Source: Escherichia phage phiEC1
Strand: one strand, 5' to 3'
DNA: 64,000 nt
Sequence record: KY608965.1
The notes beneath the pieces were generated by a model. The model ran no database searches and was not told where the DNA came from. It saw only the letters and a list, made by a program, of their open reading frames with translations. Positions 48,098-53,131 of the stretch are shown here, in pieces (the stretch's first letter is position 1; every line of letters begins with the position of its first letter). The position numbers were made by a program, and so were the translations under genes.

Positions 48098-48958
48098 TTA
48101 TACCGCCATTTTAGCTTTGATAGCTGGATGTGATTCGTAATTTTTAAGAATGAAATCACTCGGATTCATATGCTCTGTTACCCAATGAAGCTGTAATGTC
48201 GTGCTCCAATCAGAGAATCCTTCAGGCCAATCAATTTTAAGTTCACACAGTTCTTTAGGCTCACGACGAAGAACTTCTTTGCATTGTTCTACATGATTGC
48301 TGTAGATATGCGTGTTGCCGCCTGAGAACACTAAATCACCTGGGATAAGATTACACATCTTCGCTACGATATGAGTCAAGGCAGCGTATGAGGCAATATT
48401 AAACGGTAGTCCTAAGAATACATCTACTGAACGTTGATACCATTGCAGGTCAAGATGACCATTACGTACGTTGAACTGATAAAACATATGACATGGAGGA
48501 AGAGCCATTTGGTCGATTTCAGCCGGGTTCCATGCAGAAACAATTTGACGTCTGTCATTAGGAAGAGCTTTAATACGATCGATAGTTTTAACCAATTGGT
48601 CCACACCACCGAAATCACGCCATTGTTTACCATATATAGGACCAAGTTCACCACTATGATAACCAAGGTCTTTTGCCTGATTTTCGTAATTATCGTCCCA
48701 AATAGTTTTACCTTCAATAAGGCTACCATGAGTACGAAGACGTAAATCATTAACGTTGGTAGAACCAGATATAAACCAAAGTAATTCAGCGATACAAGCT
48801 TTCCATGCCAGTTTCTTAGTTGTTACTGCAGGAAATCCTTTAGTCAGGTCCCAACGCAATTTAGTCCCGAAAAGAGCAATAGTGCCTGTACCTGTACGGT
48901 CGTCTGTTTCATAGCCATTTTCTAGGATATCATTAATCAGGTATTGGTATTGTTTCAT
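48098..48958 (-). CDS. td: Thymidylate synthase (uninterrupted)
   Basis: 286 aa contiguous; active-site region …ALPPCHMFYQFNV…; overlaps frd stop. Confidence 0.96.
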   Translation of the reverse strand: MKQYQYLINDILENGYETDDRTGTGTIALFGTKLRWDLTKGFPAVTTKKLAWKACIAELLWFISGSTNVNDLRLRTHGSLIEGKTIWDDNYENQAKDLGYHSGELGPIYGKQWRDFGGVDQLVKTIDRIKALPNDRRQIVSAWNPAEIDQMALPPCHMFYQFNVRNGHLDLQWYQRSVDVFLGLPFNIASYAALTHIVAKMCNLIPGDLVFSGGNTHIYSNHVEQCKEVLRREPKELCELKIDWPEGFSDWSTTLQLHWVTEHMNPSDFILKNYESHPAIKAKMAV

Positions 48959-49542
48959 TTATACACACTCTCAGTAATTTCGGTGAGTTCATCGATTCTG
49001 TAGTAATGAGATTCTACCATAGAACGTTGAAGCATAATATCTTGGACGAAATCTTTATCAAGTTGAACATCGGAATTAACACGACATTTCTTAATGATTT
49101 TAGTCATCACGATTTCATCGGCATAAGGCAGTGCTTGTTTTAATAAAGCAGGACCGCCAATAACCGAGACATCAACATGTTCAGTAGAAAGTTTAAACGG
49201 TACGTCAGTTGCAGGGCTAAACAGGTTAATTTCGCCACCGGTTACCAAGGTAATAAATTCAGATTGGGTGATATAGAACCGTGCAAGTTCGTCGCTTTTA
49301 GTCCTAGGCAGTTTTCTAGACATATCGGTGACAACTACATGAGTACGATCTGGGAGTAGACGAGGTAATGATGCAAAAGTCTTAGCACCCATAACCATTA
49401 CAGTGTTTTTAGTGCGAGCAACAAAGTTACTCATATCTTGTTTGATATGCTTCCATGGAAGTCCATCACCTAATCCAAAAGCATATTCCAGTTTATCATC
49501 AACTGTTTTAGATGGTGCGCATGCGAATACTAATTTAAGCAT
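48955..49542 (-). CDS. frd: Dihydrofolate reductase
   Basis: 195 aa, colinear with T4 Frd. Confidence 0.93.
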   Translation of the reverse strand: MLKLVFACAPSKTVDDKLEYAFGLGDGLPWKHIKQDMSNFVARTKNTVMVMGAKTFASLPRLLPDRTHVVVTDMSRKLPRTKSDELARFYITQSEFITLVTGGEINLFSPATDVPFKLSTEHVDVSVIGGPALLKQALPYADEIVMTKIIKKCRVNSDVQLDKDFVQDIMLQRSMVESHYYRIDELTEITESVYK

Positions 49543-49544
49543 TT

Positions 49545-49793
49545 TTATTTCCTCAGATTTTTCTTAACAACTTTCCAATCAGCTTTAAACGATTCAACAT
49601 CAGAGTGGCAAATCCAGAATCCTGCGCTTTCGCCGTCTTCATAAAGTGGACATCCATCACATTCTTCATTCCAGCCCATTTCACGTAAAGCTGCTTCAGC
49701 TTGTTCAAGGAGTTCAGCATCTTTATCAAGGATGTTGAAGTACCATTTGCCTTTAACTTCAGAATCGTTAATGCTTTGGCGTTGTAATTTCAT
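49545..49793 (-). CDS. Hypothetical protein (frd.1-like), Cys-containing
   Basis: 82-aa ORF immediately upstream of frd, with early promoter cassette upstream. Confidence 0.6.
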   Translation of the reverse strand: MKLQRQSINDSEVKGKWYFNILDKDAELLEQAEAALREMGWNEECDGCPLYEDGESAGFWICHSDVESFKADWKVVKKNLRK

Positions 49794-49822
49794 TTTATTC
49801 TCCGTTGCTTCATTTGTTTTGA

Positions 49823-49859
49823 CAGGGTAATAGTATCACACCATTACCCTGTTGTATAC
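49823..49859 (-). promoter_or_regulatory. Early promoter cassette (GTATAC-N18-TACTAT) with 9-bp inverted repeat CAGGGTAAT/ATTACCCTG straddling the -10
   Basis: Minus-strand GTATACAACAGGGTAATGGTGTGATACTATTACCCTG. Confidence 0.55.
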
Positions 49860-50221
49860 TATTTTATTCCAAAAATTTCTTTAATTTCTGCAATCACATC
49901 TCGAGCATTTTCCGTAGTCACTTCAAAGATGAGTGATTGTTTAGAAATAGACTCTGGAGATACCTCGATGAAGTGTTTAAACTCATCATCATAAAGCTCA
50001 AAATATGAACCTGGCTTACCATCAAAACCGAATTCAGTACCGTCTCGCATAGTTACACGGGTTACACATTTATCATCATCATAATCTGTGTTCATGTCTT
50101 TTACAACAAAACTAGGACCATGAAGCTCAATCAAAGCCAGCATATCGGCGTTTTGTGGGCATTCATTGGCGAAGATAGCTTTACATTCTGGATTGATGAT
50201 ATAAGTTTTTCCAATTTTCAT
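49859..50221 (-). CDS. Hypothetical protein, paralogue A of a tandem pair (frd.2/frd.3 position)
   Basis: 120 aa; shares M.IGK.YIINP.(F/C)K..FANEC……ML.LIE.HGPSFVV…RVTM.DGTE… with the neighbouring ORF. Confidence 0.65.
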   Translation of the reverse strand: MKIGKTYIINPECKAIFANECPQNADMLALIELHGPSFVVKDMNTDYDDDKCVTRVTMRDGTEFGFDGKPGSYFELYDDEFKHFIEVSPESISKQSLIFEVTTENARDVIAEIKEIFGIK

Positions 50222-50244
50222 TTTGATTTCCTCTCATTTGTTTT

Positions 50245-50283
50245 GATAGGATTACTATAACATAGTCCTATCTTTTTGTATAC
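50245..50283 (-). promoter_or_regulatory. Early promoter cassette (GTATAC-N18-TATAGT) with 7-bp inverted repeat GATAGGA/TCCTATC around the -10
   Basis: Minus-strand GTATACAAAAAGATAGGACTATGTTATAGTAATCCTATC. Confidence 0.55.
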
Positions 50284-50669
50284 TACTTTTTAAAAGTTTT
50301 TTGCAAAAGTTTGATGATTTCGTCGACGTTGGTTTCATCTACGATACAATGGATTTTTGTTACACCTAAAGTTATACCTTCGTTAGTAGATTGAGGCTTT
50401 TCTAAAGTTACCTCAGTAAAGTATTTGAATTCTTCAGAGTAAATCTCAAAATACGTCTCAAGTGGGCCACCAGCCATGTATTCAGTGCCGTCTTCCATAG
50501 TTACACGTACCACACAGTCACCAGCACAATCATCACTTTCCATTTCATCTACAACAAAACTAGGTCCGTGCTTCTCTATTAAATTTAGCATCATTACATT
50601 GCAACGGCACTCGTTAGCAAAGTCATCTTTAAATAAAGGGTTAATGATATAAGATTTTCCGATTTCCAT
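50283..50669 (-). CDS. Hypothetical protein, paralogue B of a tandem pair
   Basis: 128 aa; see paralogue A. Confidence 0.65.
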   Translation of the reverse strand: MEIGKSYIINPLFKDDFANECRCNVMMLNLIEKHGPSFVVDEMESDDCAGDCVVRVTMEDGTEYMAGGPLETYFEIYSEEFKYFTEVTLEKPQSTNEGITLGVTKIHCIVDETNVDEIIKLLQKTFKK

Positions 50670-50698: not shown

Positions 50699-50727
50699 AT
50701 ACTAACACATTCAGGGAAGAAGTAAAC
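50699..50727 (-). promoter_or_regulatory. Early promoter GTTTAC-N17-TAGTAT upstream of paralogue B
   Basis: Minus-strand GTTTACTTCTTCCCTGAATGTGTTAGTAT, downstream of the gene 32 terminator. Confidence 0.55.
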
Positions 50728-50750: not shown

Positions 50751-50776
50751 ACTCAAAAGGGAGACCGAAGTCTCCC
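50751..50776 (-). terminator. Rho-independent terminator after gene 32 (GGGAGACTTCGGTCTCCC + TTTTGAG)
   Basis: Same hairpin as after genes 23 and 35, here in minus orientation. Confidence 0.75.
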
Positions 50777-50782
50777 GATTTA

Positions 50783-51685
50783 TTATAGACCAGCTAACAG
50801 GTCATCGAGGTCGCCATCATCAGAGGATGAGGTAGAGCTCATGAAGTCATCTTCAGTTTTTGCAGAACTAAAGGCTTCCATGTCTTTATCAAAATCGTCA
50901 AGGTCAGAAGCAACTTTATCTGCAACAGAAGCTGCTGCGGCTGCTGCACCACCAAGAGCGGCAGTACCAAGAACCTTAGCGAAAGATTCATTTAATTTTT
51001 CAAAGGACTTGAACTGGTCTTTAGCCGTCAAAGTAGTAAGGTCTACCATCTGGTCATATAGTTCTTTCTGGAATGCTTCGTCATTAATACGAGGAATTTC
51101 AGATTGACCCAAGAATTTAGATTCGTCGTAGTTGCTAAAACCAGAAACCTGCTTAGCTTTCAGAACGAAGTTGGCACCTTCAAACGGACAAGTAACATCA
51201 ACCGGAGTTTCACCCATTTCGGTATCAACTGCAATCATTGCATTGATTTTGTCCCAAATCTTTTTACCGAAACGATATTTAAATACTTTACCTTCGTTAT
51301 CTGGAGCTTGAGGGTCTTTAACAACCAGAATATTAGCCCAATAAGAAGTTTTACGTTTCAGTTGAGAATATTCAGTTTTGTTGGTATTGTACAGGTCATT
51401 TTTACTAATGTACTGACATACAGGACAAGAGTCGTAATCACCATGTGTAGAAGAGCAATTTTCAATATACCATTTACCATTTTTCTTGAAACCGTGGTTA
51501 ACAAGAATTGCAAATGGTAGTGCGTCATCAGTTTTTGCTGGCAGGAAACGAATTACCGCTTGACCATTACCTGATGCATCTAGCTTCAGCTTCCATTCGC
51601 CTTTATCTTCTGAAGAGAAACCTTTGTTACCGTTCAGTTTAGCCATTTGAGCAGCGAGGTCAGCAGTAGATTTACGTTTAAACAT
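50783..51685 (-). CDS. 32: Single-stranded DNA-binding protein gp32
   Basis: 300 aa, near-identical to T4 gp32 as recalled ([35 protein letters not shown]…); acidic C-terminus. Confidence 0.97.
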
Positions 51686-51801: not shown

Positions 51802-52455
51802 TTAATACTTACATGATTTGATTGTTTCTATGAACAATTTCTTAGCAGCATTTCCATCGATTTGAAGTATTTTTCGATATGCCTTTAATTTGGTAGAATA
51901 ATTTTGCCAGACTAAATTGTCAGTAAGTTCGTCATGCTTATCTATAATATTCAAGAATGAATCCAACAACAAGAAGGTTTCAAATGAAATTATATTGCTT
52001 TGTAGCAATTTGAATATGTAGCTCGACTGAACGTTGTTATTATAATCAAATATCTCTTGAAGCGCACTAACTTCAACTTTCTTACTGAAATAGTAGATGT
52101 TACGTACGTCTTCGGCAAATGTCTCTTTAGCTTGTTTGAGACGTCCAATATATTCCCTATAGAAAACTAATGCATCAGCGTCTGATATCTCACCAATCCA
52201 TGCGTCTTGGTTAGCAACTAAGTTGCTTATGAATATCAAGGTGAGTTCCTTCAATTTATATTTCTCTGCTAGTTTTTCAAAGAAATATTTATCTCGGCGT
52301 TTTTGATACGCATTATCCGAAACACGCATGCACCAGTTATATTTGATTACGTCATACCGACCACCAAAATGGTTTTTGCACATCAAGTATAGTTTATATA
52401 CCGATTTTCCATTAATATAACGTTCTCCATCAGGAGGCATGCGTATTTTAATCAT
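51802..52455 (-). CDS. 59: gp59 helicase-loading protein
   Basis: 217 aa, colinear with T4 gp59. Confidence 0.92.
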   Translation of the reverse strand: MIKIRMPPDGERYINGKSVYKLYLMCKNHFGGRYDVIKYNWCMRVSDNAYQKRRDKYFFEKLAEKYKLKELTLIFISNLVANQDAWIGEISDADALVFYREYIGRLKQAKETFAEDVRNIYYFSKKVEVSALQEIFDYNNNVQSSYIFKLLQSNIISFETFLLLDSFLNIIDKHDELTDNLVWQNYSTKLKAYRKILQIDGNAAKKLFIETIKSCKY

Positions 52456-53131
52456 ATTTCCATCCGGACCATTTTGAAGATTTAAGTCTATATGTAACTA
52501 AAGACGCAGAAATATTAAAAACATTTGAAACTTCTTTACACGAGGCGTATTTTATACCATCAATAATTATAGGTTTTTGTTTTTTAATAGTTCTTTCTTT
52601 AGAATGCGACTTTGAATTTGCTATTCTAAGAGCTTCTTTGGTTGAATCAGGCATCGGCTTATTCGTTTTTCGCCCTTTTCGGACTTTACTCAAGGCCAAT
52701 TTGTGAGCTTCAGATAGTTTCTTACCCTTATTAGGTGACGGTATTTTTCTTTCTAGTCTTGTTTTAGATACTTTAGCCTTAGTCTCTTCAGATCTAGGTT
52801 TACCTAATTTAGAAAGTGAAATAGACCTTTTAGCTTCATCACTTTGTTTTTTACCAGGACCACCTTTACCACCGGGAACTAAGTTATAAGTATCATCTCG
52901 CAAAACAAAATCTTCGTTAACCAATTCTGCTTCTTTTTTATAGGCGTCCTTGTCATTATCATATTCATAAAGAATTTCGGTATAAAAATTTTTTAGTCCA
53001 TATTTAGCTTTGGCCGCTAATATAGCGCGGCCTGATCCAATATACCAATCTTTCTCTTTATGTTTTTTGTGTACGCCTATATAAATTTTACCATTTATTT
53101 TATTGGTAGTTTTATACACAACGTATTTCAT
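52448..53131 (-). mobile_element. Free-standing GIY-YIG homing endonuclease gene (seg-like) inserted between genes 33 and 59
   Basis: MKYVVYKTTNKINGKIYIGVHKK… (GIY-x10-YIG), YNLVPGGKGG, C-terminal Lys/Ser-rich NUMOD-like repeats; overlaps gene 59 start (8 nt) and gene 33 stop (4 nt). Confidence 0.85.

Follow-up and report, generated by a model that had tools for sequence, protein, structure and literature searches.

On the sequence evidence, the T4 Frd.2 family is represented twice in the interval between gene 32 and frd of Escherichia phage phiEC1 (KY608965.1), ORF128 being the canonical frd.2 and ORF120 a representative of a rarer, older branch. Judged by comparison with related phages, the pair represents old, recombining lineages of this known family and not a fresh duplication. 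The stretch of 64,000 nucleotides that was analysed, referred to as the window, comes from a coliphage that is T4-like and falls into the RB69 group (Mosigvirus). Between positions 49500 and 50800 it shows 100% identity to Escherichia phage Mizar and ~98% to LH01 and to the LF82-n phages. The genes concerned are all encoded on the minus strand, namely td (48098-48958), frd (48955-49542), a frd.1 homologue of 82 aa (49545-49793; DUF5417, Pfam PF17438, E = 7.7e-34), ORF120 (49859-50221; 120 aa), ORF128 (50283-50669; 128 aa), gene 32 (50783-51685) and gene 59 (51802-52455). The first-pass annotation had located and sized both ORFs correctly, and the interval that it named for the pair is right as well, but the frd.1 homologue separates ORF120 from frd. 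Gene-order comparison of T4-like phages marks the gene 32-frd interval as a small variable region.

A further gene of the window, at 52448-53131 on the minus strand between genes 59 and 33, encodes a seg-like homing endonuclease of 227 aa and runs 8 nt into the start of gene 59. In its product, an I-TevI DNA-binding domain (1e-11) and, weakly, GIY-YIG were recognized. The gene is absent from Mizar at the same position, despite the identity around frd.2, and present in Phage 55, OLB35 and SHSML-52-1, which indicates that the genome is a mosaic.

Membership in the Frd.2 family is documented for both proteins by Pfam FRD2 (PF03197), which yields whole-protein scores of 76.9 bits (E = 2e-21) for ORF120 and 114.6 bits (E = 3.5e-33) for ORF128, both above the gathering threshold of 29 bits, and covers either protein essentially end to end. 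Matches to phrog_622 were likewise obtained with ORF128 (4e-38) and ORF120 (3.7e-25), and both ORFs display the full-length two-module architecture of ~112-138 aa. In Mizar, the counterpart of ORF128 is named as the orthologue of T4 frd.2 (Y14D), and that of ORF120 is nameless. An alignment of 49 sequences identified M1, Y7, P11, F17, N24, G35, F38, V40, E80, F81 and F84 as invariant positions on the N-terminal side of the family and V101, N105, I110 and F117 as those of the C-terminal module, all four of which are kept by ORF120. Searching a large protein collection with the single ORF120 sequence returned only 5 matches; the profile search gave 59, which were used for the alignments. Among 1.84 billion representatives, a profile search found 33 clusters, most of them 112-138 aa in length and matched mostly end to end. 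By tblastn, homologues were detected in 886 phage records, all from T4-like phages of Enterobacterales, with two FRD2 places in ~10% of the records (970 places in 886 records). Orthologues of ORF120 with at least 90% identity are present in 21 of about 570-890 FRD2-bearing phage records. An HMM search of all six-frame ORFs of the window revealed no third paralogue (nothing with E < 0.3), and no entry of the PDB proved to be related in sequence.

The paralogy and the conserved N-terminal core proposed earlier are borne out by BLASTP, which aligns residues 1-90 without gaps at 52/90 identities (58%; E = 3e-33), a significant similarity not attributable to chance. Comparison of orthologues yielded an omega of 0.11 in both cases (ORF120 with its ATK47 orthologue and ORF128 with frd.2 of fPS-90), which signifies strong purifying selection. 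Between the N-domains of ORF120 and ORF128, omega is 0.25 and dS 1.31. As the latter value is near saturation, the split between the two genes is ancient rather than the outcome of a recent duplication. Both genes appear functional and are plausibly early accessory genes of the small variable region. A pseudogene or non-coding reading of the ORFs was ruled out by the omega of 0.11, the intact ribosome-binding sites and the family matches.

The C-termini had been reported to diverge, and the significant BLASTP match indeed does not extend into the last 30-38 residues; nevertheless, these parts are still homologous, as evident from the shared V101, N105, I110 and F117 and the end-to-end FRD2 match. 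The C-terminal module, comprising a short strand, an invariant Asn and then a helix, is alignable across the FRD2 family (49 sequences). Two classes of this module can be told apart, a scheme that holds for the coliphage T-even genera only, as the C-module forms a continuum in the family as a whole. ORF128 combines a clade-B N-domain (HGPSFVV) with a class-1 module (GVTKIHCIVDETNVDEIIKLLQKTFKK), whereas ORF120 joins a clade-B N-domain via a short linker to a class-2 module (SLIFEVTTENARDVIAEIKEIFGIK). Class 1, with the consensus GVTKIHCIVDExNVDEIIxLLxKTFKK, is found in T4, fPS-90, RB69, ORF128 and one of the two copies in each of the loci L007-L010, and its modules are 78-100% identical. Class 2 unites ORF120, the homologues P0003 and P0029 and the other copy in L007-L010; its modules share 42-72% identity among themselves, as compared to 16-36% with class 1. 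For ORF120, the module is 42-44% identical to those of the second copies in L007-L010 and 16% identical to class 1. Every two-copy phage examined carries one copy of each class.

The conservation of class 1 acts on the protein and not on the DNA, because dS reaches 2.26 at an omega of 0.10 when residues 91-128 of ORF128 are compared with T4. Moreover, the N-domains of class-1 carriers share only about 30% identity between the T4-type and RB69-type clades while their C-modules stay 78-100% identical, which argues that N- and C-domains have been shuffled. Natural chimeras exist in P0004 and P0005, in which an ORF120-like N-domain (about 70% identity) is fused to a class-1 C-module. The difference between the C-termini of the pair is better explained by two long-standing C-terminal classes plus domain shuffling than by free drift.

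ORF120 is flanked by two related promoter cassettes, both on the minus strand. Cassette 1 (50222-50285), recognized by promoter scan, inverted repeat and folding, extends from the ORF128 stop to the ORF120 start. Its TAG stop is followed by a -35-like TATACA (50282-50277), N17 and TGn plus the -10 hexamer TATAGT (50259-50254), with hairpin arms at 50245-50254 and 50263-50272, and then by CCTATCAAAACAAATGA and the RBS GAGG; the predicted fold has a dG of -10.4, with z = -2.6 in a 77-nt and z = -4.7 in a 43-nt context. Cassette 2 (49794-49861), recognized by inverted repeat and folding, reaches from the ORF120 stop to the start of frd.1, which it serves. Here, TAG, TATACA (49858-49853), N17 and TGn plus TACTAT (49835-49830) are accompanied by hairpin arms at 49822-49834 and 49840-49852 that are 92% complementary, followed by CCTGTCAAAACAAATGA and the RBS GGAG (dG -19.1, z = -4.8 and -6.9); this cassette is nearly identical to the one located 3' of frd.2 in T4. 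The two cassettes are copies of one unit, both having the 5' arm of the hairpin in the spacer, the 3' arm over the -10 end and start region, and CCTRTCAAAACAAATGA followed by RBS and ATG. As this 17-mer occurs only at the two cassettes in the 64-kb window, ORF120 together with one cassette can be considered a 424-bp module with a direct repeat at either end.

The first-pass annotation had assigned an inverted-repeat promoter to each gene of the pair. This is correct for ORF120, whose predicted promoter is sigma70/T4-early-like (TATACA-N17-TATAGT with TGn and the repeat of cassette 1), but not for ORF128; the second inverted-repeat cassette does exist, but it precedes frd.1. ORF128 is instead preceded by an early-type promoter-like site (TTTACT-N16-TGt-TAGTAT; 50699-50726, minus strand), in which no embedded hairpin or inverted repeat was detected (fold z +0.6 to +0.75). 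The site is conserved in ATK47 and RB69, and its counterpart in fPS-90 is annotated as 'predicted early promoter'. A terminator scan further located the intrinsic terminator hairpin of gene 32 (GGGAGACTTCGGTCTCCC followed by TTTT; 50759-50776, minus strand), whose counterpart is annotated as terminator in ATK47 and fPS-90.

A homologous cassette lies 3' of the frd.2 stop in T4, RB69, ATK47, fPS-90 and the loci L009, L010 and L012. The stems differ in sequence among these relatives, and all hairpins are strong (dG -10 to -19 kcal/mol; z = -3.7 to -7.6 relative to shuffles); they adopt at least two registers relative to the -10 hexamer, and fold z-scores were therefore calculated per sequence rather than for a single consensus structure. 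Since no U-run follows on the coding strand, the hairpins of cassettes 1 and 2 are unlikely to be intrinsic terminators. They would form only in read-through RNA or in DNA, because RNA initiated from the promoter of the cassette would not include the 5' arm. Reading the hairpin at 50245-50272 as a terminator for the plus strand was discarded, as RB69, ATK47, T4 and fPS-90 do not conserve the T-run and no plus-strand gene ends there.

Several observations extend beyond the two cassettes. Minus-strand promoters of the window starting from 39118, 35221 and 41244 likewise match the T4 early type and contain a strong hairpin across spacer and -10 (dG -12 to -18 kcal/mol, z = -3.4 to -6.4); with these three additional cases, the embedded-hairpin promoter appears to be a recurrent class in this genome that is not specific for frd.2. 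At the 3' ends of ORF128 (50283-50310) and ORF120 (49859-49885), the last codons are rich in A and T, and the -35 hexamer follows immediately upon the TAG stop (TAG|TATACA; TAG|TTTACA in T4), so that the coding 3' end may double as the UP-element region of the next promoter. In T4, an unannotated hydrophobic ORF of 22 codons, MFAPYIMAAVMLVCLYLLIKAC, with a GGAG ribosome-binding site (L002 1516-1584, minus strand, corresponding to NC_000866 146015-146083) is situated between frd.1 and the frd.2 promoter-hairpin cassette, which lies directly 5' of it; the window has no equivalent.

Gene orders were compared across the named phages and 8 loci retrieved by an IMG/VR scan. The window, Mizar and L006 share the order 32 - frd.2 - ORF120 - frd.1 - frd. 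A single family member is present in T4 (32 - frd.3 - frd.2 - frd.1 - frd), RB69 (32 - ORF245c - frd.2 - frd.1 - frd) and fPS-90 (32 - frd.3 - frd.2 - frd.1 - g236c - frd). The paralogues are reversed in ATK47 (32 - ORF120-like - frd.2 - frd.1 - 83 aa - frd); L007 and L008 read 32 - class 2 - class 1 - ... - frd.3 - frd.1, and L009 and L010 read 32 - class 1 - frd.3 - class 2 - frd.1. In L006, a 99%-identical ORF120 resides beside a different frd.2 allele (77.5% aa identity). The Mosigviruses LF82-41 and mobillu, each with a single copy, match the window at 96% identity from gene 32 up to and including the cassette behind ORF128; homology then stops exactly at the ATG of ORF120, and the sequences remain different up to where frd starts. 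The ORF120-like gene of ATK47 begins with 33 nt that are identical to the frd.2 head, from which ORF120 of the window differs at 5 positions, and this identity suggests that a crossover took place within the conserved head.

The comparison also brought to light some annotation gaps. The RefSeq entry of ATK47 (NC_055708) lacks annotations for the ORF120-like gene (L004 1501-1863) and the frd.1 homologue (L004 2345-2587), and in mobillu the frd.1 homologue (L016 346-594) is annotated, apparently in error, as 'putative portal vertex of the head'. A second variable slot is apparent between frd.1 and frd, where relatives carry different small ORFs of 63-112 aa (LF82-41, L015 336-775; FP43, L017 334-672; ATK47, L004 2597-2848; fPS-90, L005 2196-2441) and the window has none.

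These data bear on how the pair arose. The model put forward in the first-pass annotation, in which frd.2 was recently duplicated in tandem and the C-terminus of one copy diverged in place under relaxed or adaptive selection, accounts for two adjacent genes of the same orientation with the observed N-terminal identity, and the direct cassette repeats flanking ORF120 are what unequal crossing-over would leave behind; nonetheless, it must be regarded as quite improbable. Not only is dS between the copies close to saturation, but the nearest relatives of ORF128 are single-copy frd.2 genes with 92-96% nucleotide identity. ORF128 is 96% identical to the single frd.2 of the Mosigviruses LF82-41 and mobillu and shares 92% of its amino acids and 91.7% of its nucleotides with the single frd.2 of the Tequatrovirus fPS-90, as compared to 77% amino acid identity with RB69 and only about 82% nucleotide identity with frd.2 of RB69 and ATK47. 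ORF120, in turn, forms its own clade with P0003, P0004/5 and P0029, shares its C-terminal class with the second copies of L007-L010, and turns up in the opposite order in ATK47 and next to another frd.2 allele in L006, none of which agrees with a duplication in place.

With respect to the proteins themselves, AlphaFold2 models built from the 49-sequence alignment reached a pLDDT of 89.1 for ORF120 and 85.3 for ORF128. Both models contain a strand at residues 6-9, helices at 11-20 and 22-34, strands at 37-45, 51-58 and 63-65, a helix at 78-83 and a strand at 84-87, followed by a low-confidence linker and a C-terminal helix. According to these predictions, the N-domain (about residues 1-88) is an SH3/FeoA-like beta-barrel with a two-helix insert, to which a strand-helix C-module is appended. 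A FeoA/DtxR-type metal site was rejected, as no Cys or His is invariant in the FRD2 alignment. Both proteins are strongly acidic, with a pI of 4.4-4.55 and net charges of -10 and -13, and the family has just one basic residue that is nearly invariant, features that make direct binding of RNA less likely than binding of protein.

What these proteins do can be framed in several ways. Kim et al. (2025; PMC12152347) group Frd.2 with GoF and MotB.1 as 'LSm-like fold', name FeoA-type SH3 domains as nearest structural neighbours and propose a role of these proteins as LSm/Hfq-like RNA binders that influence how stable phage or host mRNAs are or how well they are translated. The modelled N-domain, a small bent antiparallel barrel, would be compatible with this hypothesis, as would the similarity of ORF120 to GoF of VR7 in Foldseek (E = 7.7e-5), the weak match to the goF family PHROG 13003, seen with ORF128 only (E = 0.004), and the reported stabilization of a gene 41 5'UTR reporter RNA by GoF(D25Y) (PMC12152347). 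Given the acidity of the proteins and the absence of Hfq/Sm proteins from the best structural matches of the models, we nevertheless judge RNA binding rather unlikely. Another reading is that the two proteins are anti-defence or host-takeover inhibitors of different specificities and that the pair is kept because each member neutralizes a different host factor. Early-type genes in a variable region, small acidic products such as many phage inhibitors, a quickly diverging N-domain beside a conserved, docking-like C-module, and differences in copy number and allele content between closely related phages would all suit such a function, and so would the dispensability of T4 frd.2 in laboratory strains, where amber mutants plate normally (PMC12152347). 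Still, it is an unlikely one: searches of PADLOC, which holds defence systems, and of NCBIfam gave no match, and no homology to a characterized anti-defence protein came to light; in the literature searched, no phenotype on hosts with defence systems turned up; and the near-universal presence of frd.2 in T-even-type phages (the 886 records above) better suits a housekeeping accessory role than a counter-defence specific to certain strains.

We favour, with modest confidence, an old Frd.2-family pair whose ORF120 cassette module has been reshuffled by recombination and whose proteins act by binding. The family would comprise small, very acidic, early-expressed and non-enzymatic two-module proteins confined to T4-like phages of enterobacteria, with ORF120 stemming from an old sister lineage that has a different C-terminal class. 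Homologous recombination may have moved, swapped and recombined ORF120-type modules among T-even phages, its substrates being the cassettes and the conserved heads at the 5' ends of the paralogues, in line with the published model for promoter-early stem-loops (PeSLs), and the same process could have generated the chimeras between N- and C-domains. ORF120 and ORF128 would then function via binding rather than catalysis: the nearly invariant C-module may dock onto, or dimerize through, a conserved partner, and the fast-evolving barrel may confer target specificity, so that two copies in one phage could address different partners. An extension of this idea, which we put forward as speculative and on balance doubtful, views Frd.2 proteins as modular adaptors, in which two classes of C-terminal strand-helix anchor, the nearly invariant class 1 and the one exemplified by ORF120, would contact two different conserved partners and the fast-evolving SH3-like barrel would pick the target. 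If true, T-even phages would create new anchor/barrel combinations via recombination between tandem paralogues and between promoter-hairpin cassettes, and the presence of two copies would amount to two working channels for host takeover or counter-defence rather than to redundancy.

The findings concern a gene that is among the most widely conserved T4-type early genes. In the CRISPRi-ART screen of T4, frd.2 was the only gene of unknown function called 'Fit', a marginal call based on four guides whose signs disagree (score 0.83, p = 0.027). Some phages keep two old Frd.2 versions under purifying selection that differ mainly in their C-module; this module evolves independently of the barrel, and the proteins are too acidic to resemble classical RNA binders. 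The locus provides a clean natural example of cassette-bounded gene modules that are moved within a T-even genome. The family itself was known (2025); new are the member of a rarer subfamily, the class-1/class-2 pattern of C-modules with shuffling, and the cassette variant with embedded hairpin. Existing knowledge of the type of system is left unchanged by these results.

Compared with T4 Frd.2 (Y14D_BPT4; PF03197; PHROG 622), both ORFs have the same size, match over the full length and occupy the same position between gene 32 and frd, and the C-terminal module of ORF128 is nearly identical (89% in a 27-residue core). However, the N-domains of both are only 33-34% identical to T4, ORF120 differs by its short linker and its divergent C-terminal class, and T4 carries one copy of frd.2 plus frd.3, whereas the phage of the window has two copies and no frd.3. 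With the GoF/MotB.1/Frd.2 family, as depicted in PMC12152347, the AlphaFold2 models share the bent antiparallel five-stranded N-terminal beta-barrel, the flexible linker and a separate, variable C-terminal domain, and also the structural neighbours, FeoA first and then other SH3-like domains. The sequence links to GoF and MotB.1 are marginal: hhalign gave E = 3e-4 at a probability of 39% over the N-domain for T4 MotB.1, and no alignment for T4 GoF. The accessible part of that article contains no account of tandem Frd.2 paralogues, C-terminal classes or domain shuffling. To the SH3-like domains of FeoA/DtxR and the Tudor-like RNA-polymerase-binding domains of CarD, UvrD, PcrA and Mfd, the models are similar at low scores and 6-17% identity, and no common motifs were found; as far as the models tell, this is a resemblance of fold only and no evidence of membership or of binding to RNA polymerase.

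The architecture of the locus, as read from the DNA, fits recombination at PeSL-like cassettes. PeSLs of T4-type phages flank variable ORFs and recombine between the -10 hexamer and the ATG; ORFs can be excised by them in the form of mini-circles (Arbiol 2010, PMC2839356; Comeau 2014, PMC4122927). Likewise, the cassettes described here are short conserved intergenic units with a candidate early promoter, stem-loop, RBS and ATG, located on either side of a variable ORF, and the breakpoints seen on comparing related genomes lie between -10 and ATG, as illustrated by ORF120 with its flanking cassettes, the end of the LF82-41/mobillu homology at the ATG and the different order in ATK47. In contrast to PeSLs, the stem-loop of both cassettes flanking ORF120 is embedded in the promoter, with neither a terminator stem-loop just upstream of the promoter nor a U-run on the coding strand, and the candidate -35 hexamer, TATACA rather than TTTACW, deviates at one position from the T4/PST consensus TTTACW-N17-TAYWAT. 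The classical PeSL arrangement of a terminator hairpin followed by a promoter is encountered at this locus only upstream of ORF128, where the gene 32 terminator precedes the promoter-like site.
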